Assembly: GCF_004010195.1 (NCBI RefSeq)
Contig: NC_057746.1
Span: 9,987,045-10,051,044, forward strand
Source: Chiloscyllium plagiosum
Taxonomy: Eukaryota
DNA: 64,000 bases
Reading direction: 5' to 3'
The translations under genes were made by a program, and so were the position numbers. The number at the start of each line of letters is the position of its first letter. Within the stretch, counting starts at the first letter, position 1. The notes beneath the pieces were generated by a model that saw nothing but the letters and a program-made list of their open reading frames with translations, was not told the origin of the DNA and did not search any database. Of the stretch, positions 9,090-48,427 are shown in pieces.

Positions 9090-10330
9090 TTTTTAAAATT
9101 TGGACTGAGCCCCTGTGAGTCAACTGCACGTTTACAAATGAACTCTATCTCTGAGAGTGGGCCTGAGCATCTGTAGCCGGACCAAACCTCTGTAGAGACT
9201 GAACAACTGTGTGTGATATGAGGTGAGCATTCGTTGCATAATGGAATGCACTCTGCCTTTTTGATGATTGGATTTATCACCTGCACTGCCTTGTGTGTCC
9301 CTGGGTCTGGCAGGCCTTGCTGTGAGCCGGGAAGCTCATAGGTTGGCCAGAAAGCTGTCATTCCGAGAACCTGACGGTGAGTAGGCCGTCCCAAGAACTG
9401 GAGGGTGGGGTGGCCATTCTGAAGCCAGACGGTGGGAGGGCTGTCATGAGTGACCTCATCCTAAGGAGGGAACTGGACGGGCTACCCTAGACATGGCTGC
9501 AAGGTGTGTCAGGGCTGCAGACCGAGAGCCTGAATGGGAGCAAGGGTGGGCCGAGAGCTGGAATGGGCATGGGGTGGGCTGTCTTTGAGTGGCCAGAAGA
9601 TGGGAGACGCGGGCTGGTTGCTTGTTTACCAGGAGTGTCTGTGTAATATGCACTGTTTCATTGTTTTGTTTATTAGACTGTTTTGTGTGTGTTTGTGACT
9701 ACTGTTTCCTTTTTAGTGAGTTAATTTGGGATTTGGGGTTCGTCTGCATTTCCCTGAGAATTGGTTGCACAGTGGGGTTTGGGGCTTGACTGGCTGCGCC
9801 TTTTCCCTGTAAGTTGCTGTGTATTGTAAACTGTTGTTTAGTGTTCACTGTTGACTGGTTGCATTTTGTACAGTTTAAAAAAAAAACAAAAAAAATACAC
9901 ATAACCAGGGTATCCAGACAATCTCACTTCAGGAACTGATTGAGTGGCTGGTTCCAACCAGTGACCCTGGGGAGTATTGTTATTAGGTTCTTTTCTTTGT
10001 GAGAAACTGACCCTTTAATTATCTGACCACAGCCAGTGGTTTGATGGTTGGGGCGAGGGGCGGTGGGGAGAGGGGGGGCGCTTTCTTCTATTAACGAAGC
10101 TGGGTTTCAGCAGTACTGTTATTTTGGCGAAGATGTGGGAATGAAAGAGTCAATTTGGCGACGGGATTATGCTTTGTTCCACGGTGAGCTGTTTGAAATG
10201 AACTTCTAACCTGCCCTGCCTCAACTTCTGTGCATTGACCGAACCGAACCTCCATGGTGGGCCCGACCTCATTGAATAGGCCGATTCGCTGCATGGCGAC
10301 GAGGGCTTGGAGGTGCTGATGTTGGTCGGG
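9090..10330 (+). mobile_element. Degraded Tx1/L1-like LINE fragments
   Basis: GT-rich 3' UTR-like segment ending in an A-rich tail at 9877-9895, and an ORF1-like remnant at 10100-10330. Weak similarity only. Confidence 0.35.
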
Positions 10331-10427
10331 TGTGGCCAAAGTTAAACATCAAACAACACCAGGTTATAGCCCAAAAGGTTTATTTGGAAGTACTAACTTT
10401 CAGAGCGCTGCTCCTTCATCAGGTGGG
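10310..10427 (-). mobile_element. Short Penelope-derived repeat with hammerhead motif (family 2)
   Basis: Minus strand reads ccac-CTGATGA-aggagcagcgctct-GAAA-gtta...aaacc...tataacctggtgttg; same family as 20066 and 27500. Confidence 0.75.
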
Positions 10428-11221
10428 TATGGATATTACGATTATTCTCTTACAATTTATAACCAAAGGAGTCCAGTATTATGGAGATGTGATACAGGAA
10501 ACAATCTGAGATTTTTAATTAAAGCCACAGGATTAAGAGAACTCCTCACTTCAGGGACTGACGCAAAGCTGGCTGGCCACAGCTAGTGTACTGTGTATAA
10601 GTAAATAAAAATTACTTGCCGATGGACCCGGCCTCTGTGCTGCTATTTTAGTCTGTAGAGCCCAGACTGAGCCCTTGTGTATATGCCTGGGCATTTGTGT
10701 GCAGATCAAAAGCTTTTGTGCAGGCCCTGGGCTGTATTTCCTATACAGGAAATAAAGGCAAATTCCATTCAACTCATAATGCAGCTTGACATGAATATAG
10801 TAATTCCTCGAATTTTCTGAAAAGAATTATGATTTTGCAAAAAATATATAACCAGGAGATTCAGCGAATCTCCAGACTTCAGGGTCTGTATCAGCCTGTG
10901 GACTGTGTGCATAAGTGAATTGAAGGATGACTTGGCGACAGAAACAAGCCTCTGTGCTGCTGTTTTGCTGAGTGGATCCTGGAGTGAATCCTTGTACTGT
11001 ATGTGGATTGAGATTCCACATGTGTATACCGCGCCTTCGGAAGTGCACCATGCCTTTCCAGTATACCGTGTCCTTGCGGTAGACTGACTCTTAGTGTGCG
11101 GACCATGTCTCGGTGTGTGGTCTGTGTTCCGTGTATCGACTGAGCATGCCTCCGAGTGAGGACTCTACCTCTGAGTGTGGACTGTGTCGGGTATTTGAAC
11201 CATGCCTCTGTGTGTTTCCAA

Positions 11222-12440
11222 GTAGGATTGATGAGGGCGGAGCGGTCGATATGATCTATTTGGACTTCAGTAAGCCGTTTGAGAAGGTTCCACAAGGGAG
11301 ACTGGTTAGCAAGATTAGATCTCATGGAATACCGGGAGAGCTAGTCATTTGGAGACAGAACTGGCTCAATGGTAGAAGACAGAGGGTGGTGGTGGAGGGT
11401 TGTTTTTCAGACTGGAGACCTGAGACCAGTGTAGTGCCACAAGGATAGGTGTTGGGTCCACTACTTTTCGTCATTTACATAAATGATTTGGATGTGAACA
11501 AAGGAGGTATGGTTTGTAAGTTTGCAGATTACACCAAAGTGAGAGGTGCATTGGGTAGTGAAAAAGGTTAACTCAGACTACAAAGGGATCTTGATCAGAT
11601 GGGGCCAATGGGCTGAGGAGTGGCAGATGAAATTTAATTTAGATAAATGTGATGTACTGCATTTGGAGAAAGCATATCTTAGCAGGACCTATATTCTTAA
11701 TGGTAAGGTCCTTGGGAGTTTTGATGAACAAAGAGACCTTGGAATGCAGGCCCATAGCTCCTTGAAAGTAGAGTCCCAGCTAGATAGGATAGTGAAGAAG
11801 ACGTTTGGTATGTTTCCCTTTACTGGAGAGAGCATTGAGTATAGCTTTTGGGAGGTCATGTTGCAGCTGTACATGACATTGGTTCGGCCACTTTTGGAAT
11901 ATTGTGTGCAGTTCTGGTCTCCTTACTATCGGAAGGATGTTGGGAAACTTGAAAGGGTTGAGAAAACATTTACAAGGATGTTGGTAGGGTTGGAGGATTT
12001 GTGCTGTAAGGAGAGGTTGGATTGGCTGCGGCTGTTTCGCTGGAGGATTGGAGGCTGAGCAGTGAGCTTAGAGGTTTACAAAATCATGAAGAGCGTGGGT
12101 GGAATAAATAGACAAAGTCTTTTCGCTAGTGTGGGCGAGTCTAGAACGAGAGGGCATAGGTTTATTGAGAGAGGGGAAAGATATAAAGGAGACCTGCCGG
12201 GCAGCCTTTTCATGCAGTTTGGTGTGTGAATGGAATGAAATGTCAGAGGAAGTGGTGGAGGTTGGTACACTGCAACATTTAAAAGGCATCTGAATGGGTA
12301 TATGAATAGGAACGGTTTGGAGGGATATGGGCCAGGTGCCGGCAAATGGGATTAGATTAGGTTGGGATATCTGGTCGGCATGGACGAATTGGACCAAAGG
12401 GCATGTTTCCACATTGTACATCTGTGACTGTGTACTCTAT
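11222..12440 (+). mobile_element. 5'-truncated CR1 (HER1-like) LINE, RT to 3' end
   Basis: AVDMIYLDFSKPFEKVP...VPQG and LVRPLLEYCVQFWSPYYRKD, followed by the CR1 3' UTR. Confidence 0.92.
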
Positions 12441-15269: not shown

Positions 15270-16510
15270 GAACATAGAACATCACAGCGCAGTACAGGCC
15301 CTTCGCTCCTCAGTGTTGCACCGACCAGTCATACCAATCTGACGCCCATCTAACCGACATTATTCCATGTCCGTCCATATGATTATCAAATGACGACTTA
15401 AATGTACTTAAAGTTCGTGAATCTACTACTGTTACAGGCAAACCATTCCATAACCTTACTACTCTCTGAGTAAATAAACTACCTCTGACATCTGTTCTAT
15501 ATCTAGCATCCCTCAATTTAAAGCTATGCCCCCTCGTGCTCACCGTTACTATACTTGGAAAAAGGGTCTCCCTGTCCACCCTAGCTAACCCTCTGATTAG
15601 CTTATATGTCTCTATTAAGTCAACCTTCTTCTCTCTAACGAAAACAGCCTCAAGTCCCTCAGCCTTTTCTCGTAAGACCTTCCCTGCATACCAGGCAACA
15701 TCCTAGTGAATCTCCTCTGCACCCTTTCCAAAACTTCCACATCCTTCTTGTAATGCGGTGACCAGTTGCGGCCGCAGCAGTGTTTTGTACAGCTGTAGCA
15801 TGGTTCCAGAACACGATCCCTCTATTAATATAAGCTAAAACGCGGTATGCCTTCTGACCAACCCCGTCAACCTGGGTGGCAACTTTCAAGGATCTGTGTA
15901 CCTGGACACCGAGATCTCGCTGGTCATCTACACTACCAAGAATCTTACCATTAGTCCAATACTTTGCATTCCGGTTACTCCGACCAACGTGAATCACCTC
16001 ACACTTGCCCGCATTTAATTCCATTTGCCACCCCTCAGCCCAGCTCTACAGCTTATCTATGTCTCTCTGTAACCTACGACATCTTTTGTCATTATCCACA
16101 ACTCCAACAACCTTAGTGCCGTCTGCAAATTTACTAACCCACCCTTCTATGCCCTCATCCAGGTGGTTTATAAAAATGACAACAGTGGACCCAACACCGA
16201 ACCTTGCGGTACACCACTGAGAACTGGACTCCAGGATGAACAGTTCCCATCAACATTTAGCACCCTCTGTCTTCTTTCAGGAAGCCAATTACTGATCCAA
16301 GCTGCTGTATCTCCCACAATGCCATTCTGCGACATTTTGTACAATCGCCTACTGTGGGGAACCTTATCGAACGCCTTGCTGAAATCCATATACACCACAT
16401 CAACCAGTTTACTCTCATCTACCTGTTTGGTCACCTTCTCAAAGAACTCAATAAAGTTTTCGAGACACGACCTACCCTTCACAAAACCATGCTGACCATC
16501 CTGAATCAAA
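15270..16510 (-). mobile_element. CR1 LINE, RT to 3' end (in MHC intron 1)
   Basis: QHGFVKGRSCLENFIEFFE...DVVYMDFSKAFDKVPH...GVPQGSVLGPLL and TRGHSFKL...FTQRVVRLWNGLP. Confidence 0.92.
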
Positions 16511-16914
16511 GTATTCTTTTGCTGTTGACTTTGCGAGCTGAGTCTCCAAATAGCACACACATGCATACAACTTTTTACTGCAACTTTTTGACAGCTTCCA
16601 CCTTTGCCTTGTAGAGGGCAATGTTAGTGCGATTATCTGGGAATGGGGGTTTGGAGTACACCCTTGTGTAGAATCCTAGGGAAATTGTTGGGGGAAGAGA
16701 GGTCAGTCCTTTTGAGGCGTTGCCTGGACTGTCCAGGACTGCTCTCAGCAGCATTTCAGTGAGCCGAGTTCGTTTTTAATAATTGTACATGTAAACAAAA
16801 GACGCAATCAGGGTTGAAACAGCTCTTTGAGGTTATGTTTCTAACGCGACCTCGTGATCTCATTCGAAGAAGTAAATATTCAGATAATTGGGATATTCAG
16901 AAAATCGAGGTTCC

Positions 16915-20065: not shown

Positions 20066-20203
20066 CTAAAAGATCACACAACCACCTGATGAAGGAGCGC
20101 CGCTTAGAAAACTAGTGCTTGCAATTAAACCTGTTGGATTATAACCTGGTGTTGTGTGATTTTTTACTTTGCATACACCAGACCAACACAAGCATCTCCA
20201 AAT
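20066..20203 (+). mobile_element. Short Penelope-derived hammerhead repeat (family 2) with 15-bp TSD
   Basis: TSD cagtactgaatagag at 20051-20065 and 20204-20218; CTGATGA at 20086 and GAAA at 20107, stems degraded. Confidence 0.8.
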
Positions 20204-20214
20204 CAGTACTGAAT

Positions 20215-21730: not shown

Positions 21731-21821
21731 CTGAATATATAGTAATCAGACAAGTAAATAAACAAAAGATGTGTTGTTATTAATAAGAATGCAGAAGCAT
21801 TACAAACAACTAGCATCAACA

Positions 21822-21957
21822 CTATTCCTGATGAAGGGCTTTTGCCCGAAACGTCGATTTTCCTGCTCCTCGGATGCTGCCTGACTTGCTGTGCTTTTCC
21901 AGCACCACGCTGATCTAAAGTTTGGTTTCCGGCATCTGCAGTCCTCACTTTTGCCTG
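21822..21957 (+). mobile_element. 136-bp Penelope pLTR-derived unit carrying a hammerhead ribozyme, 9-bp TSD
   Basis: TSD gcatcaaca at 21813-21821 and 21958-21966; the sequence matches the terminal repeats of the Penelope element at 34072-38860. Confidence 0.85.
21824..21860 (+). ncRNA. Minimal type I hammerhead ribozyme (intact core)
   Basis: CTGATGA(21828)-A-GGGC-TTTT-GCCC-GAAA-CGTC; loop-less palindromic ACGT stem III; predicted cleavage after C21855. Confidence 0.8.
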
Positions 21958-22259
21958 GCATCAACAAATGTTGAGCAGTGTTTTTGAGTTTTTGAACCAA
22001 GTCTGAAACATCTAAAGTGTTTAATGGAATGTTTATGCTTCTTCAATATTCAACCGTTTGATGTATGTCCCCATCTAAGGAAAGTGAAGCTTTATGATAT
22101 GTACTGCAATTTTTTTTATAATGTTGATATTGAGTGAAATGTACTCCTTTTGTTAATATGAGACATACACAGAGGTTTGATGGCAATAATGAATCAAAGT
22201 TTCGACATTAATCTGATGTGCATGTGACTTAGTTCCCCGAGTTTTCATGGAATGATTGC

Positions 22260-23899: not shown

Positions 23900-24480
23900 G
23901 ACAGCATTTTTGCTAAACATGCTTGACGAGGACATTAGTCTACCATGTGGAAACTTGTCAAAGACTCAATTACTGAAGTTAGGTCACATGGGAATCAGAA
24001 AGAGCTTGCCAATGGGATACAAAATTAGCTTGATGGCAGGAGACGGTAATGGCGGAGGGTTGTTTTTCAAACTGGACGCCTGTGATCAGCAGTGCTCCAA
24101 AAGGGTCTGTCTGGGTAGTCTTGTTTGTCACTTATAAAATGGATTTGGGAAATTAGAAGGCATGGTTAGTAAATTTACAGACACCAAAATTGATGACAGT
24201 AGACTAAGAAAATTATCTAAGAGTACAGAGGGATCTTAATCAGTTGGGCTGAAAAATGGCAGATGGGGTTCAGTCTGGATAAGTTGAGGTATTTGCATTT
24301 TGATACAACATACAGGAGTAGGGATTATACAATAAATTGTAGGGCTGTAGATAGCTCTATCGTAGAGGGACCTGGGGTGCCGGTACATAAGTCTTTGAAG
24401 TTTGCCTCACATGTATACAGGGTTTATGTAAAGGTGTTTGACACGCTTGTCTTCATTGCTCAGTCCTTTGAGTGCAGGAG
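23900..24480 (+). mobile_element. Old CR1 RT fragment (MHC intron 2)
   Basis: Degenerate KF.DTKI motif and CR1 C-terminal remnants. Confidence 0.7.
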
Positions 24481-25535
24481 TTGTTTTGTGGCTCCTCTGT
24501 TTTATCATGTGCTACTTATCACATCCATTCACCGGATGCTATTATGTTTTCTAATCAACCTATTCAGTGCTGCAATGACACCCCTCAGGAACAGGTGGGA
24601 CTTAAATGTAGGGACACTACCACTGTGCCTCAAGAGACCTTCTGTTACTTTGTGTTTATTTTATTTTCTACTTTTGTGTCTGTGATTTTTATACAAATAG
24701 ATGTCTCTTCCCTGCTTTGGGTTTATAAACGGGTTCAATAACATCAACATTTCCCACTGTCTATATTTTACACATTTACTGCTTTTAGCCAATTACAGTG
24801 AGCACACTTAATCTCATTTCACCGCAGATACCCTGGCCTAAAACTAAGACCTTGAGAGTTTCATATTTTTCTCGTTTAAATACAATATTGCACTTTGATC
24901 ACATTGTGGTCACTGTAAGATAAATATTCATGCTCTGCTCGTTTTAGTGTCCCGACTGCATTGAGGCCCAGATTTAAGCCCCACCGCCAAGGTTTCTAAT
25001 AAAGTGTCCAAACAGGTTGATTAATGAAATAGCTTAAAATTTTAAGTTAAATCTGACCTTACTCATTTCTAAATAGTGATGCCTGACACTGAAAAATAGG
25101 TATTCCGTGCTGATGCTGTACATTATGCTGTTTGTTTGGACCTTGCTCAGCGTAATTTAGAAGTTACTGCAGTTAATATCCAACATTGTCACTTCGCACT
25201 GTTTGAGCTGTCACCTAGTCTGACTAGCAGGTTACACTAGGGTTTCTGGAGAGTTCGAGCCATTTAGAATGAGACTAAATCTTACTGTGGATCAATCGGG
25301 GATATTTGGAGTTGTTTTTAAGTATTGTGTTTCTGTTGCAATTTCACAATTTCCAAAGCATATGTTAATTTTGGTCACCTGAATGAAGGCTAGGCCTAAC
25401 ATAGGCATCCAACAGGATATAACAGATCCAATTGGGGTTATTCAGGAATTCAAATGAGGATGGTAGAGTCAGACACAAACCGAAAACGTTTGAACTTATC
25501 CTGTGCTTTTGTTATGAACTTTCTTTCTGTTCCAG

Positions 25536-30371: not shown

Positions 30372-30873
30372 ATGTGGACTTGACCTGAAAGAGTGAAGTG
30401 ACGTCATGGATTAAACAGCTCTAAAATGCTTCAATTTTCAATGTGGCCACAGATCATCATATAGGCTGCTTCACGTTGACTTTTGTTCGAGGTTAATCTC
30501 GTGAAATGCATGAGACTTGTACACTGTAACTTTTTAATCATGTTGAAATGACCTGTAAAAACAGATGTTTAATGTACAGCTACCACAGTGTGATTAACTC
30601 CTCTCTTTGCACCCCATCCTCATCCTGAGTTACTGGGATCAGTGCTTGAATGGCTCTCTCTTTTTAACTTCACTTTCTGTTCGCAAAGCTTTGTTGTAAA
30701 TGTTCTGAAATCTCCATTATTTACTTCAAAAATAATGTGTCTTGTATCTAAACAATTTTAATGTAACAATTGATTTTTTTTAAGATCCATTACATGGACT
30801 TTAGTTTTGATATTATAGCTGCAATCAGTTTGATAAAGACCATTTGTACTTGGGTTTGCTGTTGTTTGTCCTT

Positions 30874-31080
30874 GAAAATGTGTTGCTGGAAAAGCGCAGC
30901 AGGTCAGGCAGCATCCAGGGAACAGGAGAATCGACGTTTCGGGCATAAGCCCTTCCTGAAGAAGGGCTTATGCCCGAAACGTCGATTCTCATGTTCCCTG
31001 GATGCTGCCCGACCTGCTGCGCTTTTACAGCAACACATTCTCAGCTCTGATCTCCAGCATCTGCAGACCTCACTTTCTCT
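30874..31080 (+). mobile_element. Penelope pLTR unit with inverted 5' copy (fold-back) and hammerhead, 14-bp TSD
   Basis: TSD tgttgtttgtcctt at 30860-30873 and 31081-31094; 30874-30955 is the near-perfect reverse complement of 30961 to about 31042. Confidence 0.88.
30953..30988 (+). ncRNA. Minimal type I hammerhead ribozyme (intact core)
   Basis: CTGAAGA(30956)-A-GGGC-TTAT-GCCC-GAAA-CGTC(30983). Confidence 0.75.
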
Positions 31081-31357
31081 TGTTGTTTGTCCTTTACAAT
31101 GAAAAGCTTCAACTACTAACTAATAAACTTTGGGTCTGTACAATTGGCCACTGCATTTTCCAATCCAAAAAAAATGTGCAAATGGCAGTCATTCCGTACA
31201 GAATTTTGGTAGACTGAGTCCAGTTTGTGGAATGTGCCCTTCATGTGAATTTTCCTATGGTAAAGCTGAGCTATTTCAGGGCGGAGAATCTGTCAGCCAC
31301 TGGCTGTATGCAATGCTGATCCAAACATACATGAAGCAATATTGACCACTTGTGTCG

Positions 31358-31811: not shown

Positions 31812-34071
31812 TTTTCCCCCTTTTTGACATAAACTGACAATAAGGACTACTACAGCAATAACACATTAAATCTAGAGCCAGAATAGCTAAACATCAGAAA
31901 ATGTTAAGGAAACACCAGGCCTTTCCTCACACACCACCTCCCCGAAACACAGCTGTGTGGCGGTATCGTCACTTGCTCTGGTGTGCCCTGTACACAGCCC
32001 ATGTTCACACGTCATACTCGCCAAAGTCATGGTAGTGTGGCGTCCACGCAATGCCCGTGCCCTTATAATAGTCCAACCAGGGCGCTTGCTAAAAGTGTGA
32101 GCTGTGGCAGCCCCATATTCGTATGAAGCTTCTAATCACTACTTGCACTTAATTGGTTCCAGTGCTGTCCGATGTCTCCTCCAGCCCAGCTACACGCTTG
32201 CAATGGCTGGTATATATCCACGTGGCTCTTTCTGCGACTTTAACAGTTGTCTGTATTTCAAGGAGCACTTGAAACGGTCCAAGCCACCTCTTCACCTTCC
32301 AGTTATTCCTCGTGAATTCTTTCACCACTATCCAGTCTACAGGTTCTAGATCATGCAGTTTCCGTCCTGCTGGTTGGGGTAGTGCTGCTTTCACTTGATT
32401 CTGTATTTGTGATAAAAATATATAGAGTTTTATACAGTAATGTAACATCTCATCCTCACAGTGGCTTGTTAGCTGCCTTACCTTATATCTTGGGCCAATT
32501 CTTTTGTTGGGCGGTCTACCAAACAAAATCTCAAATGAGCTAAGGTTAGCTCTTCCTCTCCTCCGAGATCTGATACACATTATCACAATCAGAAGAGACT
32601 TTGTCCATGTCACCTCTAGGTTCTCACAACTTTTTGTCATTTTTTTTTAGGGTAGCACTTTCTCTTTCCACTGCCCCACCGCTCGCTGGGTGTAGGCATC
32701 GTGTTGTCTCATATGTATTCCCAAATAATCACTGATCTGTTGAAATCATTATTGGCAAATGGTGTCCCATTGTCACTACTAAGCCTTTCAGGAATTATTT
32801 CTGTAAGCAAAGCTTTAGCTACTGCACTGGCATCCTGTTTAGACGAAACGCTTCCACCCATTTGGAAAACATATCAACTTTTACCAGGCAATACGTTTTC
32901 CCTTCTTTGGGCGTTAGTTCAATGAAATCCATCTGTAAATATTCAAAGGGTTTTTGGGGTTGGGGGTGTGCTGCCTGACTCATCTCTATTCCTCTCCCCA
33001 CATTATTAGTGACACAGATTACATAACACCCACAATATTTCTGGGAATAATAAGTAATTCCCTTCGTGTACCAGTGTGCTGAAATAATGTCGTACACCAC
33101 CCTCCCCACCCCACTTTTGACACACGGTCCTTACAATGTGTCAGTTTGGCATAGAATGGAAATAATGATCGTGGTAGAGAGGGTTTACAATTGGGGCCAC
33201 ATCATACTCCTTCCCTCGCACTGCAGCCTGCTTTTGTCCACTCACGATTTTCTTCTGATGTGGCCTGTGACTGTAACTCCCGCATGTCTGCTGTTGGGGT
33301 ACAACGTTTTGTTTTACACATGTCAATCTGCTCATTTTGCAGATGCTGTGCTGCCGTTCTTGCTGCTGATTCTGCCTTTGCATTGCCTTTGGAAATAAAA
33401 TCATTTTTGTGTGTGGGCTTCACATTTACACACAACGATTGATTTGGGCAATACGACCTCTTCCAGGAGGTCAGAAATCAGGCTACGGTGTGAGATGGGC
33501 TTTCCAGTGGAGATAAAGAAGCATCCTGTGTTTCCACAGGTTTCTGAAATCATGTACAATCTCCAATTAATATCTACTATTGGTGTAAATATTCAGTGTC
33601 TTTCCCTCAGCTAATTTACATGCCTCAGTCAAGGCAATCAGCTCTGCTGCTTGCGCTGACAGATGAGAAGGGAGTGATCCCGCTTTGACAATCTCGTAGA
33701 TAATCACTACAACATACCCAAAACAATTCCAGCCTGTCTCCTTGCTCCTGAATGCTGACCCGTCCACAAAAAAAACTCCATATCTGATTTCTGAAGTGGT
33801 GAATCCTGCAAATCTTGTCGAGGGCTGCAAATCTCATTCGTTACTGGGACATAATCATGTGGGTCTCTGTCGACTTCTGTGGGGAGAAGGCAAGCAGGGT
33901 TTAGGACGTTACATCACTTTATTGTAAAGTTAGACATCTCCAAGAGCACAGTATTATATCTGAGCCAACGTGCTGCTGACATGTGTGCGGCCATTTCCTC
34001 GGATAGAAGTAAGGATACTGAATGTGGGACCAGACGGGTTAATTCACCATAGCCGACTATAACCCTGGATA

Positions 34072-37000
34072 TTCCTGAAGAAGGGCTTATGCCCAAAACG
34101 TCGATTCTCCTGTTCCTTTGATGCTGCCTGACCTGCTGCGCTTTTCCAGCAACACTTTTTTAAGCTCTGATCTCCAGCATCTGCAGTCCTCACTTTCTCC
34201 TAGTTGATTTTAACCTACTGTGAATCTTCTTGCAAGGATGCCTTCCTTGAAGAAGCTCTCCTCCTCCCTCTACAAGGATCTCAGCGATTCCCTCTCTCAC
34301 TGCACCCCTTCCCCCGGGTCATCTCCTCTACCCTGAAGCTCTTCAGCCACGTCCTCAAACAGACTCGCTACCACAGCCACATCACCTTCCTCAGCAGACG
34401 TCCCCAAGAGTATCCTTCCACCGACACTCTCATTCTTTTGGCCGAACTGGTCCTCACCCTTAACAATTTGTCCTTTGAATCCTCCCACTTCCTCCAGACC
34501 AAAGGGGTAGCCATGGGCACACGTATGGGCCCCAGCTGTGCCTGTCTCTTTGATGGCTACGGAGAACAGTTGATCTTCCGTAATTACACCGGCACCACTC
34601 CCCACCTCTTCCTCCGCTACATTGATGACTGCATTGGCGCCACCTCGTGCTCCCGCGAGGAGGTTGAGCAGTTCATCAACTTCACCTACACATTCCACCC
34701 TGACCTTACATTTACCTGGACCATCTCAGACACCTCCCTCCATCTCCATTAGTGACGACCGACTTGACACTGACATTTTTAACAAACCCACCGACTCCCT
34801 CAGCTACCTGGATTACACATCTTCCCATCCTATCTCTTGCAAAAATGCCATCCGGTATTCCCAATTCCTCCGCCTCTGCCGTATCTGCTCCCAGGAGGAC
34901 CAGTTCCACCATAGAACACACCAGATGGCCTCCTTCTTTAGAGACCACAATTTCTCTTCCCACGTGGTTAAAGATGCCCTCCAACGCATCTCGTCCACAT
35001 CCCGCACCTCCGCCCTCAGATCCCACCCCTCCAACCGTAAGCAGGACAGAACGACCCTGGTGCTCACCTTCCACCCTTACAAACCTCCGCATAAACCAAA
35101 TCATCTGCTGACATTTCCGCCACATCCAAAAAGACCCCACCACCAGGGATATATTTCCCTCCCCACCCCTTTCCGCCTTCCGCAAAGACCGTTCCCTCCG
35201 TGACTACCTGGTCAGATCCACGCCCCCCTACGACACACCCTCCCATCCTTGCACTTTCCCCTGCCACCGCAGGAACTGTAAAACCTGTGTCCACACCTCC
35301 TTCCTCACCTCTATCCAAGGTCGTAAAGGAGCCTTCCATATCCATCAAAATTTTACCTGCACATCCACTAATATCATTTATTGTATCCGTTGCTCCCGAT
35401 GCGGTCTCCTCTACATCGGGGAGACTGGGTGCCTCCTAGCAGAGCGCTTTAGGGAACATCTCCGAGGCACCCGCACCAATCAACCAAACTGCCCCGTGGC
35501 CCAACATTTCAACTGCCCATCCCACTCTCCTGAGGATATGAAGGTGCTGGGCCTCCTCCACCGCCTCTCCCTCACCACCAGACGCATGGAGGAAGAACGC
35601 CTCATCTTCTGCCTCGGAACACTTCAACCCCAGGGCATCAATGTGGACTTCAACAGCTTCCTAATTTCCCCTTCCCCCACCTCATCCTAGTTTCAAACTT
35701 CCAGCTCAACACTGTCCTCTTGTCTTGTCCGGACTTGTCCGACCTGCCCAGCTCATTTTCCACCTATCCACTCCACCCTCTCCTCCCTTATCTATCACCT
35801 TCATCTCCTCCCCCACTGACCTATTGTACTCTATGCTCCTCCCTCCCCACCCCCACCTTCCTCTAGCTTATCTCTCCACGATTCAGGCTCTATGCCTTTA
35901 TTCCTGATGAAGGTATTTTGCCCGAAACGTCGATTTTGCTGAAGCTCCTCGGATGCTGCCTGAACTGCTGTGCTCTTCCAGCACCATTGATCCAGAATCT
36001 GGTTTCCAGCATCTGCAGTCTTTGTTTTTACCTTTTTAACTTGTTTACAGAAGCGACTGACCAATCATGGACTCCGGACTACATTCAGAACAACAAAATT
36101 TGGACTCAACCAAGCGCTCGGGCACCATTAACCATGCGGCCGCTGCAGCAATCGCCGCCAACAATGACGTCATTTCCGCCCCCACCGACCATGCAGCCTC
36201 CGCGATCGTCGCCCAGACAACTGCCTCCACGATCGCCAGGAAGATCATCGCTGACAGATTCGCGGCCTCCGTGGGGTCCACAACCAACGGGAACAACACC
36301 GTTTCTGCATTCGCCACAGCCACTTCCGCCCCTGGAGTTTCCGTCGCCGCATCTACGTCCGCCCCAGTGACGTCACTCGCCTGCACAATGATTACGTCGC
36401 ATGCGTCTCTGCCCCCACGCCAATCCCCGCCACTGCGCCGAACCCTGTCCCAACGCCTAACTCCGCCTCCATGCCTAACACCGTCCCCACGCCTAACCCC
36501 GCCCCACACCAAACCCCGCCCCACTCCCAGCTCCACAGGTCCTAGCTCCCAGCCATGCCGTATATTCACCATCTCTCCAGACCTCCCCCTCTCTGAGGAT
36601 GAAAGACGAGTCCTTAGCAGAGCCCTCACTTTCATTCCCCTAAGCTCCCGGAATAACAAATTCAACATGCGGCGAGAAATCGAGCATTTCTTCTGCTGCC
36701 TTCCCCTCCAAATTTACTTCTTCAACCAGCACTTCCGCCCACCCTCGGACGACCCCATCCACCTGGACACCCCGTGCTGGCCTCTTAGCTGCCCTCGATC
36801 TTTTCATAGCCAACTGCCGCTGTGACATTGAACGCCTCAACCTGCCCACCCCTCTCACCCACTCCAACCTCTCACCCTCGCAACGTGCAGCCCTCCACTC
36901 CCTCCGCTCCAACCCCAACCTCACCATCAAACTGCCAGACAAGGGAGGTGCAGTGGTAGTTTGGCGCACCGATCTTTATATTGCTGAGGCTAAACGCCAG

Positions 37001-38860
37001 CTCGTGGGCACCTCCTCCTACTGCCCCTTGACCATGGCCCCACCTCCCACCACCAAACCATCATTTCCAGACCATACATAGCCTCATCACCTCAGGGGAA
37101 ATCCCATTCACCACCTCCAACCTCATAGTCCCACAACCCCGCACTGCCCGTTTCTACCTCCTGACCAAAATCCACAAACCTGACTGCCCCAGGCGACCCA
37201 TTGTCTCAGCCTGCTCCTGCCCCACCATACTCATTTCTGCATACCTTGACACGGTCCTGTCATCCTTAGTCCAAGAACTCCCCACTTACGTTCGGGACAC
37301 CACCCACGCCCTCCACCTCCTCCATGATTTTCACATCCCCGGCCCACAACGCCTTATTTTCACCATTGACATCCAGTCCCAATACACCTTCATCCCCCAT
37401 CACGAAGGCCACAAAGCCCCCCGCTTCTTCCTTTGCTGTCGAATCAACCAGTACCCTTACACTGACACCCTCCTTCCAATGATTGAACTGGTCCTCACTC
37501 TGAACAACTTCTCTTTCCAATCCTCCCACTTCCTCCAAACCAAAGGAGTAGCCATGGGCACCGGCATGGGCCCCAGCTATGCCTGCCTCTTCGTTGGATA
37601 TGTGGAACAGTCCATCTTCCGCAGCTACACTGGCACCACCCCCCACCTTTTCCTCCGCTACATCGATGACTGTAACGGGGCTACCTCGTGCTCCCACGAG
37701 GAGGTTGAACTGTTCATCCACTTTACTAACACCTTCCACCCTGACCTTAAATTTACTTGGACCGTCTCAGACTCCTCCCTCCCCTTCCTCGACCTCACCA
37801 TTTCTATCTCAGACGACCGACTCAACACGGATGTTTACTATAAACCGACTGACTCCCACAGCTACCTAGATTACACCTCCTCCCACCTTGCCCCCTGTAA
37901 AAACGCAATCCCATATTCCCTATTCCTTCACCTTTGCCGCATCAGCTCCCAGGAGGACGAATTCCACTACCGAACAACCCAGATACATCGTATCATTCTT
38001 CATCATTTCCACCACCTCCAAACAGACCCCACCACCAAGGAGATATTTCCCTCCCCACCCCTATCAGTGTTCCGGAAAGACCACTCCTTCCGCGACTTCC
38101 TCGTCAGATCTACAGCCCACACCAACACAACCTCCACTCCCAGCACCTTCCCCTGCAACCGCAAGAAATGCAAAACTTGCGCCCACACCTCCCCCCTCAC
38201 TTCCCTCCAAGGCACCAAGGGATCCTTCCATACCCGTCAGAAATTTACCTGCACCTCCACACACATCATTTACTGCATCTGCTATACCCGATATGGCCTC
38301 TTATACATTGGGGAGACAGGCCGACTACTTGCAGAACGTTTCAGAGAACACCTCTGGGACACCCGCACCAACCAACCCAACCACCCTGTGGCTGAACACT
38401 TTAACTCCCCCTCCCACTCCGCCAAGGACATGCAGGTCCTTGGCCTCCTCCATCGCCAGGCCATGGCAACACGACGTCTGGAGGAAGAGCACCTCATCTT
38501 CCGCTGATGAACCCTCCAACCACAAGGGATGAATGCAGATTTCTCCAGCTTTCTCATTTTCCCTTCCCCAAAATTTTCTCAGTCTCAACCCTCAGACTCA
38601 GCACCGCATTCTTGACCTGCAATCTTCTTCCCGACCTCTCCGCCCCCAACCCCTCTCCGGCCTATCACCCTCACCTTAACCTCCTTCCACCTGTCATATT
38701 CCCAGCGCCTCTCCCCCAAGTCCCTCCTCCCTATCTTTTATCTTAGCCTGCTTGGCACTCCCTCCTCATTCCTGAAGGAGGGCTTTGCCCGAAACATTGA
38801 TTATCCTGTTCCTTTGATGCTGCCTGACCTGCTGCGCTTTTCCAGCAACACATTTTTAAG
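34072..38860 (+). mobile_element. Near full-length Penelope-like element (RT + GIY-YIG, direct pLTRs) inserted in ERV pol
   Basis: TSD ctataacc(c/t)tggata at 34057-34071 and 38861-38875. ORF 37479-38507 has QTKGVAMGT, FLRYIDDC and IIYCICYTRYGLLYIGETGR; hammerhead-bearing repeats sit at both ends. Confidence 0.93.
34395..36035 (+). mobile_element. 5'-truncated Penelope copy of a second subfamily nested in the outer Penelope
   Basis: Abrupt jump from the N-terminal region (HSHITFLS) into RT (RRPQEYPSTDTLI...YIDD), GIY-YIG region near 35370-35430 and a distinct pLTR variant near 35900-36035; the outer element then resumes. Confidence 0.8.
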
Positions 38861-40259
38861 CTATAACCTTGGATACTACAACACTCTTTTCAACTGCGGC
38901 CACGGCTGAATCCTGGCGCTAAACGATCCTGCCGCTACAGGGTCTAGTTTAGCTAAAAAATATGCTTCCGGCCTCAATCTTCCCCCATGATCCTGCCAGA
39001 ACACAGATGTCATGCAGCCACGCTTCTCATCTACCGTTTGTACAAAAGGCTTGTTTGGATTCGGAATCCCCAGTGAAGGTGTAGTTTGAAGCGCCTTTTT
39101 TAGTTCAACAAAGACACTTTCAGCCTCAGGGATACACTGCAACGGACTCTAGTTCGGCAAACCTTTGCCATGGGCTATGTCACTTAGGGGACGCTCAAGG
39201 ATAAACCCATAATGTGGGATAAACATTCCACAGTCGAAGCACATGCCCCAAATAGATAGTAATTGTGTTTTCGTGTGAGGCTTTGGAATTTGCAGGATTG
39301 TTTGAACTCTGTCTTGACCAATGGCCTTCCCTTGTTCAAATATTAAGTGACCTAAGAACTTCACCTGTTGTTGCACAAATTGCAGCTTTGCGAGACTAGC
39401 TTTGTGTCCTTCCCTTGCTAGGTGGCAGAGCAACGCAATGGTATCCTTCTCACATTGTTCCTTTGTTGGTGTCGCTATCAAGCAATCACCTACATACTAC
39501 AGAAGCACTGACCCCGGGGTTAGAACAGAAGTCTCCAGACTTTTGCGTAGAGCCACATTATATATGGTGGGGGACTCACAGTAACCTTGATAAAGTCGTG
39601 TGAATGTGTATGATTTTCCTTTGAATGAAAAAGCGAACCAGAATTGACTATCTGGGTGCACAGTTACACGAATGAAGGCACTAGCTAAATGCAGAACAAT
39701 GAACCATTTCCTGTCCGGTAGAATTTGAGTTAATATCGTATAGGGGTTGGGAAAATTTGGGGCGCATGGGGCAAAAGCATTATTGACTGCCTGCAGGTCA
39801 TGAACAAACCTCCATTCCTCCGGTTCACAGGGAATGCTTGCCGTTTTACCCGTAAAATGGGGGTTCTCACCAGTGAGTTTTCACAGGGGATTATCACTCC
39901 TGCCTTTAAGAGGGACTCAAAGACTGGAGTAATTCCTTCTGTGGCCTCGGGTTTTAACGGGTATTGTGCTCTGCAAGGTTGATACTCAGACTTCATGGTT
40001 ATTCTTATTGGTTCACAGCCTCGTATGATTACCACATCATGTTTGCCTTTTGTCCACACCTCAGTAGGAGACGTTTTTAATCTTGGGTCCGAGACTTCTA
40101 TCTTAGGGAAACGCCAGGCTACCCTCCTAGGCTTTTTAGTGCGAGAGCGGGTTACCTGGACCGTCCTATCTGCCTGAGTTAGCCAATTTGGTTTCCTCCT
40201 ATATGTCCACATAACTGCATTGAACCATATATGCACATCGTCCCAGAAGACTCAACCTT

Positions 40260-40760
40260 TCGTTCTTTGTGCCTTTCGCACCCATGGTCCAAAGTCATGC
40301 CACCTGTCACCTGTCTTCCCCAGTGACACGTGAAGAGCTGAGCCTTCCACATCAAAATGACAATTTACAATGCAGGCTATTTCCTGAAGCACTGTCTCTC
40401 ATTAAGCCGTGTCAACATTCAATTGATCCCTTTAGCCACAAGGGCTATATCTACTTTCTTCTTTAAAATGCAATCTGTCACAGGTACTTTAGATAAGTTT
40501 ACACTGACTTCACATGTGTGATCAATACAATAAAATTCGCAAAGTAACAAGTGATCTAGTTTAACCAATCTCCTGAACCAATCCTCCTCATCTGATTCAT
40601 TAGGACCATCGCAGTGTACGTGTGCTGTGCAGTGCAGCATTACCTCAGTAAGAAAATCGTTGTTAATAGGTTTAACATGTTTACTTGCTTCCAGAGTGAG
40701 TGAATCACTCACCGAACCTATTGCTCTCCGGATTAATCGACATTCATAGACATACATCAG
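40260..40760 (-). other. 2H phosphoesterase-like domain remnant in ERV pol, between protease and RT
   Basis: LHCTAHV (HCT 40634-40626) and SALHVSLGK...WHDFGPWV (HVS 40332-40324) form the paired Hx[T/S] signature; split by an insert of about 125 bp containing CR1-tail sequence. Confidence 0.75.
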
Positions 40761-43029
40761 GGGTCGTGGGTCATGGTTACACCCTACACAGGTAAATCTT
40801 CACTTTGAATTTCCTGCAAGCCCTTCGGAGTATTGATTAAATCCAAACCCAGTCTCCCTATGAGATTCCGACCCAACAGATTTCAAGGACAGAATTTCGA
40901 TAACAAGAATGAGAATTGGAATGTTTGCCCGTTACTGGTTTTGCACAATAGGGGTGCAGAATATCTCTCTCGTACAGCGACTTCTGATGCACCCATTGTG
41001 TTCAGGACGCATCCACTCACCTTTATTGGCGTCGATTGTCTAAACTGGCTTAATTTAAGGACTGAATATGTTGCTCCGGGATCTAGCAAAACGGTAACTG
41101 TTGTATCTTCCACATATAACTCAGAGGTAGGCATCGACTTATACGCAACATTGTTACATTGAACACATTGTCCACACTTCGCAATATAGAGGAGGGACAT
41201 TTCTCAGTGCCCCGTAAGGGTAGTAGAAGAGTTTAGCATAAGCGAGTCTTCATTGCCAAGCATAAGGGAAAGAGGCTTACCTGTACCTTGTGGGGTGCCC
41301 ACCTCCACCTCAGCCGTCCCGTCTGTCACCAGCCTCAAGGGCCGATTGGGGCTGTCTGTGCAGACATTGTCTCGCCCAGTGGTCCATTGCTCCGCAAAAA
41401 AGCACCCGCCAGTTCTACCTCGACCAGCGCCTCTTCCACAACTCCTTTTCCTCTTCCACGATCTCCATCTCTGCCTCTCTCTCTCTCTTCCTGCAGCACC
41501 TCCTCCAACGGCTGGGTGACCATTTGCATCATAGTAAGCTGAGCCTTATGTGCTTGCTGGTCCATCTTTAGTTTCTGATTATCCTTCTCGTGTTTAAGCA
41601 GTTTTTCAGCTTGCATCGCATGTTGTTCTATCAAATTCAGCTTTCCCGTGTCCCAGGTAATATATGTGTCTTTTACCTTTTTTGCTATTTCCTTCTTCAT
41701 TCCATTGAGGAAGCTGCTCCTCAGGTGTGCTTCATACGCTGTGATTTCTGCCGCCGTTATGTCGTCGGGTGGTCTCAGTCCACTGTGGGTGTTATGGACG
41801 TCAGTGAGGCGCATAAGGTACTGGGACAGTCTCAACTTCCCGTTGTTTCTGGGAATGCCTCCCTACAGACTGCTGCCAGTGTTGCAACAAAAGCATTAAA
41901 GTCTCCATTCTCTTCTGCTTGCGGGTCAGTTGATCTGGCATGGCCAATTATACTTGATTTTGGTGTCATAGGCACCCAGCTTTCATTCCAGAAGATAGCC
42001 CATATCATGTGACATGCGATGGAACTCGGAATATAACTTTGCCACTTCTTCAGCGAACTTATTACCTCCAGCTTCGCGTGCGTCAGGCAACTGCCCATAG
42101 GCACTTTCCTAATCCTTCATGATCCATGGTCAGTGGACCAGCATTATGTGCCCTTCTAGACCTGCAACTTCAACCATTGGTGCTTGCAGGATTACCTGGT
42201 AAGATAAATGTATGCTAATATTCTCGGCTGACTCATCATCCATCATGGGGAGAGCACGAGCAGGCCCTGGATGCCTTTTCGTCTTGGAGTGGCCATCGCA
42301 ATTTTGAGCTTCTTCCTTTAATTGGTTTCAGGTATGACTTGATATCAATGATTCAGCAGACCCTGAGGCGGCGGTTGCTGACTTGGAATCTTCGCCAGGC
42401 GGATCTCATGGGGGAGGTGTAGGTCTCGGAGGACATTCATCAACGTCAGGATCTGGAACAGACTTAAGATACTGTACAGCTTCGTTAGGTTGTTTTCTGC
42501 GCGGATCTGCATGTGTGTTAGAGTTTGTGCACATATTTGATCAAATCTATTACTTGAGATTTCCTTTCTCTGATAACAGCCTCAGCTTCCACATGTTATT
42601 AGCACTCCAATTGACAGTTTCTGTTTTTCCCTTCCGTTTCTCCTTCTCTTTCTCTCTCCTCCAACCTCGACCTGAATATTTCCAACTGCCTTTTACTAAA
42701 ACTTCCTCCCTTCCGAAAACCACATTACTTGATCCACAATTCTAACTGCTTTACAGACACTGGGCCGTAACTATTTAGCATGTAATGTGTTTTTCGTTGG
42801 CCATTCCAAGTCCTCTGTGGTGCCTCTTCTTGTTTGCACTTGCTGGGACACATTTGTAGCGTTACTGGAAAAGTGTTCAACCTTCTGTCTGTCGTGGTAC
42901 GGTTATCTTTTTCCCTTTGACTTGCTTTTTCTCTGAATTCGACTGCTCGCAAGGCCGGGTTGAGCGTTTGCAAAGTTCAGCAAAAACGAGCTGTCTCCTC
43001 GATTGCAGAATTCAGCAAAGTGTTTGCAA

Positions 43030-44833
43030 AGTTCATAAAAGTATTAAATTGAGCAAAGCATTCCCATTCAGATTTCTCAGTGAATGTTAATTTTGTTAAT
43101 TTTCCATTAAAATAGGAAAAGAAAGGAAAAGATAATCTGGTACTAGCTGTAACACAGAGCGAAGAACCAAGTTCAGATAATTCCAAATTGAACATCCCTC
43201 AAATTAATTGGACAATGATTAAGTTCTCAAAAAAGTGATAGATTATTTGATTACTTTCCAGATGAATATCGAAAGGACCTGGAAGTGTTATTACAATCAA
43301 ATGGGGACATATATTGGATTAAGCTCCGAAGTGAAAATCTTATGATGCGTGATGGAGATACAGGAAATGCTGTTCCAAATAAGCAACATGCTTATGGACA
43401 TAAACCTCCAAAATTCACACAGGTTCAAAAGGAGACTATTTGCATAGTCAAAGACAATATAATCGGAATGAGTTGAAGCAACTGGGTCTCACCCAATATA
43501 AAGTTGCTGAAACCAAATGACACCTATTCACCATGTATGGACTTTCGCAAAGTCGATGACATTGCAAAATCTGATTCATCTCCTACTTCATATTTGGATG
43601 ACTCCATTCAGAATGTAGGACAAGGTACATTGATTTCAAGGATGAACTTATTCAGAAGATACAGACAGTTGTCTTAATCTGAAAGAACAAATGAAATTTC
43701 AGCCTTCCTGATATCGAATGGTCTGCGCCAATTTATCGTCATGCCATTTGTTAGGAAAACTGAGCCAGCTACATTTAAAAGATTTAAATAATAAAGTGAA
43801 TTTCGATTTAGCTAACTGTGTGGTGTATGTCGATGGTGTGGTGATTTTTAGTCACACATGGCAGGAATATTTGAAGCATATATCTGAATTATTTGGGAAT
43901 AGATTAGCGTTGTGAAGCAGCCTTGACGATAAACCTTGTTCACAGCGAGTTCGCAAAAGCTCAAGTCACATTCCTGGGTTATGTCATTGAACATAGACAA
44001 GTGACCCCATAGGATGAGAAAATAAAGGTTATTAGGGAGCATTATATCGCATTGATGAAGAGGAAATTGCGATTGCTGGGACTGAGTAGGCTTATCCGAA
44101 TTTTAGAAGTGTGGTCACTCACTAGCTGACTTGTTGAAGAAGAGCACAAATCTTAGCAGGCACAGCAATGTCAAAGACATTTGTTGCCTGGAATCTGTGT
44201 TAGCCACTGTTCCAGTGTTAGTCATACCTAATTACATATTGCTGAAAATGTGTTGCTGGAAAAGCGCAGCAGGTCATATCTAATTACATATTGCCATTCA
44301 ATGTGGTCGTTGCTGCAAATGACTTGGGTGACGTTGCTGGTCTCTTGCAAGAAGAAAATAAAAAGACCGATTGGATTTTTTTTCAGCAAATTAAATTGTA
44401 ATCAACTGAAATATTCCACAATTGGAAAGGAGGTTTTGCGTTTGGTGTTAGCATTCCATCATTCCAATATTTATATTTGCTGTATTTAGTCTGAGACAAT
44501 TGTATAAACTGTCAGTAAGGAGTTAAAGTTTTTAGAAAAAATGAGGCTAAAAATTCTCGACTCTTCAGATGGAGATTATTATTACAGACATTCTATTTGA
44601 AGGTTAACCTTGTGACAGGATGAGAGAACGTAATTGTCAATTTGTTGCTGCGACTATGAGGAAGGAAGGTGATGGGACAAGAACAGACTATAATGGACTG
44701 TAGCAGCGAATATTTCATATTAGAATCCATGTGATGTATAAGTATTGCTTTGTAGTATTAGTATAAAACTAAGTCTTTTTCAAAAATGAAGCCGTTTTTG
44801 TATATTAATGGTTCTTTTCTTTTAGAGAGGAGG
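43030..44833 (+). mobile_element. Degraded Gypsy-group LTR retrotransposon RT-RNase H (possibly Gmr1-like domain order)
   Basis: GNAVPNKQHAY (usual form PIKQHPY), VYVDGVVIFSHTWQEYLKH and PIGFFFSKLNCNQLKYSTIGKEVL. Pol ends after RNase H near 44660, followed by a purine tract at 44824-44833. Confidence 0.8.
44243..44272 (-). mobile_element. 30-bp abortive Penelope tail insertion with 22-bp TSD
   Basis: tgaaaatgtgttgctggaaaagcgcagcag is flanked by gtcata(c/t)ctaattacatattgc at 44221-44242 and 44273-44294. Confidence 0.85.
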
Positions 44834-45764: not shown

Positions 45765-46770
45765 TGGAGGTTGAGCAATTCATCAACTTCACCAACACAT
45801 TCCACCCTGACCTTAAATTTGCCTGGACCATCTCTGACACCTCCCTCCATCTCCATTAGTGACGACCGACTTGACACTGACATTTTTTACAAACCCACCG
45901 ACTCCCCCAGCTACCTGGATTACACCTCTTCCCAGCCTATCTCTTGCAAAAATGCCATCCCGTATTCCCAATTCCCCCGCCTCCGCCGTATCTGTTCCCA
46001 GGAGGACCAGTTCCACCATAGAACACACAAGATGGCCTCCTTCTTTAGAGACCGCAATTTCCCTTCCCGCATGGTTAAAGATTCCCTCCAACGCATCTCG
46101 TCCACATCCCGCACCTCCGCCCTCAGACACCACCCCTCCAACCGTAACAAGAACAGAACGACCCTGGTGCTCACCTTCCACCCTACAAACCTCCGCAAAA
46201 ACCAAATCATCTGCCGACATTTCCGCCACCTCCAAAAAGACCCCAACACCAGGGATATATTTCCCTCCCCACTCCTTTCCGCCTTCCGCAAAGACCGTTC
46301 CCTCCATGACTACCTGGTCAGATCCACGCCCCCCTACGACCCACCCTCACATCTTGGCAGGGGGTGGGCCCTCCTCTAGCTTATCTCTCCATGCCCCACC
46401 CCCACCCTCCCCTAGCTTATCTCTCCACGCTTCAGGCTCTCTGCCTTTATTCTTGATGAAAGTCTTTTGCCCGAAATGTCGATTTTGCTGCTCGTTGGAT
46501 GCTGCCTGAATTGGTGTGCTCTTCCAGCACCACTGATCCAGAATCTGGTTTCCAGCATCTGCAGTTATTGTTTTTACCTCGTTGATTTTAACCCTACTGC
46601 GAATCCTCTTGTAAGGATGCCGACCTTGAAGAAGTTTTCCTCCTCTCACTACAAGAATCTCAGGGAGTCCTTCTCCCACTGCAACTCCCAGGTCATTTCC
46701 TCTGCCCTGAAGCTCTTCAACCATGTCATGAAACACACTCTTTACCACAACCACATTTGCTTCTTTCATC
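45765..46770 (+). mobile_element. 5'-truncated, internally deleted Penelope copy with pLTR and tail running into the next ORF start
   Basis: DIFYKPTDSPSYLDYTSSQPISCKNAIPYSQF; same pLTR variant as 35900-36035; tail MPTLKKFSSSHYKNL... Confidence 0.88.
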
Positions 46771-48427
46771 AATATCAGACTTGGCATTTTTAGAGATCGG
46801 AGAAACGGAGGCTAATTACATTTCAATTCTAGGTTTTTGTTCCAAATGCTTCTATTAAATTTTGGATATACGTGCATCTATACCTATGGTGAAATTTATC
46901 CCTATGATTGTCTGAAGAATTCTTAACTGGAACATGCTTTTTAATATTGCGATTAAATTCAAAGAAACAACTATTTACGAAAAAGTAAATTGAACTGTTG
47001 TGTTTGACGATGCTTAGGGAGTCCATTTGGTTCGTTCATGGGCTGAGACTGGCATCTGGTGCTATTCGATGACTGATGAGGCTGGGATCTATTGATTGTC
47101 TGCCTTTCGGCATTGTCCTATATAATCTGTCTCGAATGGTTGCTCGCTCGGCCCCTTCAATGATCTGAGAATGGCTCTGTTCAAAGGTACCATAATCTTT
47201 CACTGTATATGCAGGTTTTTAAATTTTGCTGATGTTTCGTCAGTCATTTTGTCTAAGTAGTCACTGGCCATTTTTGTCTAAGCAGGTACGGGCCACCACA
47301 ACAAATCTTCAATATTGTTATGTTATAGCAATCCTTGTTTCTGTTGTTGTATTTTAATTATCGCGTATAAATAACGTTTTTTTTTCGTGCTTCAAGACTG
47401 GTAGTTGCAAGACTAATCGAGTTGCATCTAGACAGGAACACCTGGAATTGACAACAAAAGAGAAATAGAATCTTGGCTATCTCCTTGTCATGTGTTGAGG
47501 GGGTTTGGTCTCGTCCATAAGATACGATAGGTTTATACTAACTTTGATTTTACTTTACATGCGCCTTCAAGGAAGACGAGAAGAAAAAAAATCCTTTGAT
47601 GTGTGGCAAAATTATCTACTTCTGGTTAAGAAAATACATTTTAAAAAAATGACAAGTTGTTATCTAACGTGACAATTTCATTCGTGTAATGTGTTGTTCA
47701 AACCAGCCGTAATTTTCTAATAATGTGTTCGGCAGAGCTTTATTGATGCTTATCATACAGTTCCATACTCGCAACCAAATATTCACGGTTGAAGCAAAAA
47801 ATTCCATACCCAGTTTATGTTTAATTGGAATGCAATATGTTGCATTTTATTTGACATAATTATCTGATCTGTGTCATTCTGCTTGGATAAAAATCAAGAA
47901 TATTTTTAGTAAACTTACGACTTGCCAGTCCATCATTTTTCCATTCATCACAAAATGCTGAATTTCCATTCCATTCTCTGATGTGCATGCTGTCAAAAAG
48001 GTAGAAGAAATTGTGCTCGTTTTCCATTGAAAATATTGTGATACTTTTAGCTATTATGTTTCAGGTGGAATCCTAAATCATAAACAAAAAACACGGAGCT
48101 ATTTCCATATTACTGGCTATCCCACACATAATAGTTGCTTACGAATATAAATATGTATCAAACATTTTTTTTTCCAAAAAAAACACCTGACATTTTTTAT
48201 GCCGTCAGAAATTATTTTAAAATTTAAGTAGATGCATTAGTTGTTTTATTTCAAGTAGACAATAAATTAAACGCGACAAACAAAACATCGCTATGTTCTT
48301 TGCGGGGTGAGCTGTGAGGTAGAGGCATAGAATCTCCAATTTGAATATTATGCACTTTCTCTGAAAGAAGTGGAAAACTGTTCATTATTTCAATATTTTC
48401 AATTAAGGTTGTTCCATTTCATTTGAT

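Follow-up and report, generated by a model that had tools for sequence, protein, structure and literature searches.

The features considered here lie in a window of 64,000 nucleotides of the Chiloscyllium plagiosum genome (3.56 Gb; contig NC_057746.1, positions 9,987,045 to 10,051,044); by the window we mean this whole stretch. They comprise two short inserts, referred to below as minis, each matching the terminal unit of a Penelope-like element (PLE), together with other copies of this element and of a second hammerhead family:

about 10300-10430, minus strand: copy of the second hammerhead family, AGCT palindrome, predicted cut after UA
20076-20205, plus strand: copy of the second hammerhead family, AGCT palindrome, predicted cut after UA
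21813-21821, plus strand: left TSD of mini copy 1, 9 bp, GCATCAACA
21822-21957, plus strand: mini copy 1, a solo PLE terminal unit, +1 at 21824
21824-21859, plus strand: minimal type I hammerhead of copy 1, by descriptor match, predicted cut 21855^21856
21958-21966, plus strand: right TSD of mini copy 1, GCATCAACA
30874-31080, both strands: head-to-head insertion of the terminal unit, short (~+95) arm on the minus strand and long (+130) arm on the plus strand
34072-38860, plus strand: composite dead PLE insertion with three terminal units and deleted or frameshifted ORF pieces
37032-38507, plus strand: open stretch of 491 amino acids with RT and GIY-YIG similarity (RVT_1, E 3.3e-6; GIY-YIG, E 0.0012)
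46394-46793, plus strand: further copy with 3' UTR end, unit (+1 at 46449) and ORF start
48413-48427, plus strand: left TSD of mini copy 2, 15 bp
48428-48564, plus strand: mini copy 2, a solo PLE terminal unit, +1 at 48439
48439-48474, plus strand: minimal hammerhead of copy 2, by descriptor match, predicted cut 48470^48471
48565-48579, plus strand: right TSD of mini copy 2, 15 bp

Positions in the unit are counted from the A of ATTCCTGA as +1 (21824 in copy 1, 48439 in copy 2). The earlier note on this DNA had described 21822-21957 and 48428-48564 as inserts between TSDs of 9 and 15 bp that begin a few bases before the CTGAnGA core and end at nearly the same point, and both are confirmed with intact hammerheads: each mini starts at or just before the A of ATTCCTGA and stops at +130. 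The long 3' end of copy 1 lies at 21955, with two extra nucleotides on either side of the unit; copy 2 has 11 extra junction nucleotides (48428-48438) ahead of +1, and the first three nucleotides of its right TSD also match the normal 3' end of the element. In both minis the hammerhead (+1 to +36) is followed by about 95 nt more, up to +130. Their mutual identity is only 80%, and they fall into different subfamilies, copy 2 being a member of a young subfamily that has 100%-identical copies elsewhere in the genome. A long hairpin is predicted from about +40 to +118 (21864-21945 and 48478-48556); it encloses a second, shorter 3' end site described below, whereas about 12 nt separate its base from the long site beyond. 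An AATAAA motif at 48522-48529, just before the short site, occurs in the young subfamily and is absent from the others.

The hammerhead motif reported in the earlier note satisfies a minimal type I descriptor, built from the features given in PMC4209133, in both minis. From +1 to +36 it consists of helix I, the CTGAnGA core, an extra A, helix II, GAAA, and the ACGT palindrome that forms helix III, with a predicted cut at C32^G33. Copy 1 has helix I ATTC/GATT, the core CTGATGA (21828-21834), helix II GGGC/GCCC, GAAA and palindromic ACGT, and copy 2 has a perfect helix I, ATTC/GAAT. The descriptor matches the two minis alone in the window, 46 places in a 1.6-Mb genomic sample, and none in each of five dinucleotide shuffles. 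The extra position (9/10.1) is A in 45 of the 46 matches, and the helices and the palindrome covary between families. A search of Rfam returned no hammerhead family at E<=1. Minimum free energy folds of the monomer retain helix II without the active shape, with unremarkable energies (z from -2.0 to +0.2). Matches of Rfam microRNA models to the fold-back at 30.9 kb were rejected as chance similarity.

The terminal unit comes after the 3' UTR of an ORF encoding RT and GIY-YIG domains, and in tandems it precedes the ORF start, occupying, for instance, the 3' UTR/ORF junction in the copy at 46394-46793. Therefore it is the outer part of the pseudo-LTR (pLTR) of an EN+ PLE. Other features of this class were found as well: the unit stands at the 3' end of an ORF whose GIY-YIG domain is C-terminal, the 30-40 bp tail is optional, terminal repeats are both direct and inverted, and insertions have TSDs. 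Both domain scores at 37032-38507 are under the Pfam gathering cut-offs, because this copy is decayed. Between the two domains lies a CxxxxCxxC motif (CNRKKCKTC), and such a Zn-finger-like linker is a feature of the Neptune and Nematis groups (PMC8557442); judging from these translated remnants, the element is likely a PLE of the Neptune type. The PLE origin proposed earlier for the minis is supported. The unit is an EN+ PLE terminal-repeat insertion with a minimal hammerhead, and truncated PLE ends with such hammerheads are already known.

The composite insertion, previously put forward as the parent of the minis, is flanked by a 15-bp TSD with one mismatch (34057-34071 and 38861-38875). It consists, in order, of a unit (+1 to +130) whose 5' hammerhead carries G12A in its core, an ORF start, a deleted RT-EN piece, a second unit (35900-36033), a longer RT-EN body, and a third unit (38768-38860) that stops at the short site. 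Being a broken composite, with G12A and only 84% and 87% identity to the two minis within the unit, it is a relative and not the parent.

The ends of the unit were mapped in a blind sample of 160 stretches of 10 kb at round coordinates, that is, 1.6 Mb (44.8 kb masked) or 0.045% of the genome. It yielded 252 arms of the family, with 3' ends scored in 251 and 5' ends in 225; since 18 of the 27 arms left out of 5' scoring (those adjoining N or an edge) are long copies, the share of minis is somewhat overstated. The 3' ends are bimodal, 71 of 251 falling at +93 to +100 and 120 at +126 to +131, and these two sites, about +95 and +130, account for the 30-40 bp PLE tail. The 5' ends of 116 of the 225 arms lie within 10 nt of +1 (5.5 per nt), against 3 at -50 to -11 (0.07 per nt); the remainder fall at +11 to +30 (27), +31 to +50 (22), further in (13), further up than -50 (33), or beyond the reference (11). 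For solo arms the figure is 50 of the 72 within ±50 (p 9e-19). The favoured start point is 4 nt ahead of the CTGAnGA core.

Genome-wide exact counts for the young subfamily give the same picture: 2,560 copies reach +11 and 1,726 reach +2, while 940 extend to 6 nt upstream and 812 to 20 nt upstream (the last counted with a pattern whose 3' part is shorter), a loss per nt of 0.044, 0.087 and 0.011 over successive intervals. Here, 63% of copies end inside 16 nt, with about 1% loss per nt beyond. The 5' peak is thus about 16 nt wide and not a single base, and its +2 to +30 portion consists partly of inverted junctions. Since the 5' ends peak near +1 both in the sample and in the genome-wide counts, random 5' truncation, named earlier among the results that would refute a ribozyme-defined family, is excluded. 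Copies starting at TTCCATTCC in an early genome search had been selected by the query's own junction bases and were excluded from the end statistics. Among the 51 solo minis of the sample, 20 have a TSD score of at least 8, compared with 0 of 300 mismatched flank pairs; the score is below this threshold in the other 31, many of them old. The earlier claim that the PLE machinery copied the minis as single TSD-flanked events is supported, as are sharply peaked 5' and 3' ends.

The sample also contains 51 head-to-head inserts, in which two arms are joined at their 5' ends inside one TSD (detected in 38 of 51, versus 2 of 300 controls). For instance, the arms of the insertion at 30874-31080 meet at the 5' edge of the hammerhead, between copies of a 14-bp TSD (30860-30873 and 31081-31094). 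One long and one short arm are paired in 44 of the 51, the other seven having one irregular arm, and pairs of two long or two short arms are absent. Solo minis use both sites about evenly (26 long, 22 short, 3 other). The second hammerhead family shares no sequence relationship with the first and is linked at one locus to a GIY-YIG piece, yet it behaves similarly: among its 100 arms in the 1.6 Mb, 45 of 75 5' ends lie within 10 nt of the edge, the 3' ends are near +88 and +124, and 25 of 29 pairs are long with short (one long with long, one short with short). The strict pairing points to either one RNA, each site of which is used once by two target strands, or snap-back of a cDNA; two independent RNAs are disfavoured, because independent site choice would give like-with-like pairs half the time. 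Two further related families were noticed (L085:3668-3812, L059:602-746 and others), one with a U3-A8 core variant, and many of their copies appear to start just before the core.

We suggest that the minis are probably dead by-products of PLE replication, formed by priming at one of two fixed internal sites and run-off where the RNA probably begins, immediately ahead of a hammerhead left uncut. Here, +1 would be the transcription start in the pLTR, in an Inr-like pyrimidine-ATT context, and the GIY-YIG endonuclease would cut both target strands about 9-16 nt apart. Within the 5' leader copy, the RT would then prime at +130 or +95, much like the anole PLE protein, which in vitro starts at two internal sites. 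A single productive priming may yield a solo mini with both ends fixed, and priming from both strands, with each site used once, the head-to-head form. The uncut RNA would serve as template, and the hammerhead would be carried along because it stands at the front of the RNA.

Several published observations agree with this reading. PLE start sites have been placed inside the pLTR (PMC2377424, PMC8557442), and the anole element has two internal RT start sites, the gap between which corresponds to the tail; its main substrate is unprocessed RNA, and no reads ending at the cut site are described for it (PMC11167929). Other observations count against it, including the width of the 5' peak. The D. 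virilis hammerhead is found about 120 nt downstream of the start site, beyond an intron (PMC2377424, PMC4209133), a geometry different from that of the present element. In vitro, start-site use by the anole protein did not differ between strands (PMC11167929), whereas coupling is seen in the genome. An extra cap-derived G was not evident by eye at 23 solo junctions, and none of the sequence matches listed is recorded as RNA. A 2026 poly(A) single-cell run labelled as this species showed no pile-up of molecule starts or ends on a 3' UTR-unit-ORF stretch, where depth over the unit was only about 3 and a second, inverted unit absorbed nearly all reads. A splice acceptor at +1 was rejected, there being no AG in most subfamilies.

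For the head-to-head forms alone, snap-back of one cDNA could replace priming from both strands, with solo minis arising as above. Two arms within an insert resemble each other more than arms taken from separate inserts do (0.88 versus 0.78), and self-priming has been proposed for rotifer PLEs (PMC3846280). We nevertheless regard snap-back as rather unlikely, since 22 of the 51 solo minis have the short site as their end, which indicates that this site works as an independent start, and since junction positions vary, the two arms often stopping at different points.

Another possibility is that solo minis and 3' pLTRs are transcribed from +1 by an internal promoter and recopied in trans, with or without a role of the ribozyme, so that the minis would spread in the manner of SINEs. 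Their fixed length and two peaked ends fit this, as do their number (some 117,000 solo minis by rough extrapolation), the location of the D. virilis promoter inside the pLTR (PMC2377424), and the existence of non-autonomous PLE derivatives such as MRC1 (PMC8557442) and retrozymes (PMC7229834). However, the anole protein requires RNA downstream of its priming sites (PMC11167929), which the minis lack, and none of the larger clades with good support consists of minis alone. Across a tree built from 121 arms (80 mini and 41 long, over 87 columns, most forks open), the mini and long labels change 31 times, versus 34.3 after shuffling (48 of 500 shuffles as low). Long copies are no more distant than minis when nearest neighbours are compared (0.087 versus 0.093), and minis occur alongside long copies in every subfamily. 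One four-row mini-only cluster (97/95) is present, and a three-row one, tested further, has long members in 11 of 30 loci. Neither a master lineage nor diagnostic variants of the minis were found in these 87 columns, although small mini-only lineages could be missed, given so few columns, the open forks and a sample of 0.045%.

Copies that retain coding sequence point in the same direction. By hand count, 11 of 27 scorable copies selected by the ORF start begin within 10 nt of +1, two extend upstream, and five begin near the tail start (+88 to +101). Of 29 copies selected by the inner ORF, five were scorable, and three of these, nearly full-length, begin at +1. Because ORF-bearing copies share the left edge of the minis, the element itself has its left edge at +1, with the minis as its shortest products. 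Thus SINE-like spread is improbable. The interpretation in the earlier note is partly supported, but its independent SINE-like family is not, the minis being end-pieces of a very abundant Penelope-type element. In the ORF-bearing copies with a 5' end at +88 to +101 (L198, L202, L204, L211, L219), the tail alone comes first, as described for old Drosophila Penelope copies. At 16 of 29 ORF-start loci a new unit begins, from +1 to +9, straight after 190-410 nt of ORF start, a form that the ORF-start query may favour. Short tandems without a 3' UTR (L193, L196, L197, L199-L201, L208-L211, L213 and others) resemble template jumps after run-off.

The +1 edge could also be made during or after copying, through nuclease resolution of an intermediate or through release of the RT where a protein-bound hammerhead fold ends. 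The edge follows the 5' strand of helix I in both families that were measured, a match also seen by eye in two others. In the anole element, the endonuclease has a preference for ATT close to the junction of ORF and pLTR, and the hammerhead is assisted by protein (PMC11167929). We find this quite unlikely. The edge of the second family has neither ATT nor a C-rich run, which argues against sequence-specific causes of the boundary. Moreover, an RT moving 3' to 5' would meet the fold at +36 and not at +1, about one third of young copies read through unhindered, and at some junctions the first bases are briefly repeated, which, counted without a control, suggests run-off.

The predicted cut lies about 32 nt inside the unit, and the site is retained intact. 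Only 5 of 225 arms start at +33, most of them at inverted junctions, and only 1 of 123 solo arms does so; for some, complementarity of helix I supplies microhomology. Genome-wide, in one subfamily, a purine stands just before G33 in 14 copies, compared with 6 for a control position and with 2,463 copies that are uncut; this test detects about half of such ends, and therefore cut-site starts make up about 1% at most. The +33 sub-peak was accordingly rejected as a cleavage signal. A unit set by dimer self-cleavage or circular RNA, as in retrozymes and as implied by the term ribozyme-defined in the earlier note, is thus highly improbable and, as regards the boundary, largely refuted, despite the intact, covarying hammerheads and the few +33 starts, because the copies begin 32 nt before the cut and are dispersed, with no head-to-tail repeats whose ends are set by ribozyme cleavage.

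In LTR retroelements, strong-stop cDNA arises when priming inside the RNA, close to its 5' end, is followed by run-off, and in L1 twin priming the second target strand primes internally. The minis would work like minus-strand strong-stop cDNA or like L1 twin priming, with two differences: unlike in the former, there is no tRNA primer or integrase, and unlike in L1 inversions, both arms copy the same stretch of RNA. More tentatively, and with a chance that we consider limited, PLEs in general may replicate via an LTR-like strong-stop step, in which a protein dimer bound to a single RNA primes the two cut target strands at two fixed 5'-leader sites, each used once, copies to the capped end, and then jumps, either to the 3' pLTR, giving a full copy, or to another place on that RNA. 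If so, the minis, the long/short hairpins and the tandems of unit, ORF start and unit (the 16 of 29 loci above) would be failed or mis-aimed jumps; the regeneration of pseudo-LTRs, the tandems and the inverted ends would be accounted for, and the hammerhead would stand where it could act as a switch by removing a capped leader of 32 nt.

Insertions of EN+ PLEs are known to include 5'-truncated and inverted-pLTR forms with a 30-40 bp tail (PMC8557442, PMC3846280). The present ones resemble them in the pLTR unit, the tail of about 35 bp at one end only of inverted inserts, the head-to-head arms, the TSDs of 9-16 bp and the solo pLTRs, and differ in that most copies stop at one narrow boundary, whereas variable 5' truncation has been described, and in a near-obligate pairing of long with short arms (44/51; 25/29). 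The one-ended tail is known qualitatively (PMC8557442), and no pairing counts were found in the portions of the literature searched; likewise, no report of a fixed 5' boundary or of twin priming in PLEs was found in the open-access literature. A further parallel is the Anolis Poseidon element PAc (Frangieh et al. 2024, PMC11167929), which shares two internal RT starts matching genomic ends, an uncut RNA template, extension of both target strands and a predicted dimer. In PAc the starts lie 111 or more nt inside the ORF, while here both precede ORF-like sequence, and the fixed 5' boundary and site coupling seen here are not among the properties reported in the sections of that paper considered.

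The hammerhead corresponds to the minimal one of metazoan PLEs (Cervera and De la Pena 2014, PMC4209133) in the core boxes, the extra base 9/10.1, G10.1-C11.1 and the palindromic helix III. There, too, the motifs are mostly single and dispersed, 'probably related to truncated PLEs', and the U3-A8 variant occurs in both; the difference is the place of the putative ribozyme, here at the very front of the copied unit. Non-LTR retrozymes (PMC7229834; bioRxiv 10.64898/2026.07.22.740005) similarly have a type I hammerhead, PLE pLTR ancestry, no coding capacity and monomer copies, and the shark retrozyme families of the latter source could include this unit. Unlike retrozymes, which are head-to-tail repeats cut from ribozyme to ribozyme, the copies here are dispersed, solo or head-to-head, with ends that bear no relation to the cut site.

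With a fixed left edge, two start sites and near-obligate pairing, exact coordinates are available for testing where PLE RNA begins. They also let the existing in vitro system address the timing of ribozyme cleavage relative to copying, and the question of whether both target strands are primed by a single RNA.

Finally, a piece of 32-34 bp from the middle of the unit was noticed in the window at 44243-44276 (minus strand). Judged from translations, broken LTR-retroelement-like gag/pol remnants lie at 32149-32646 and 39497-42012 (minus strand), and fragments at 11543-12058, 15310-16623, 24221-24685 and 59155-59565 presumably encode RT of CR1/L2-type LINEs.
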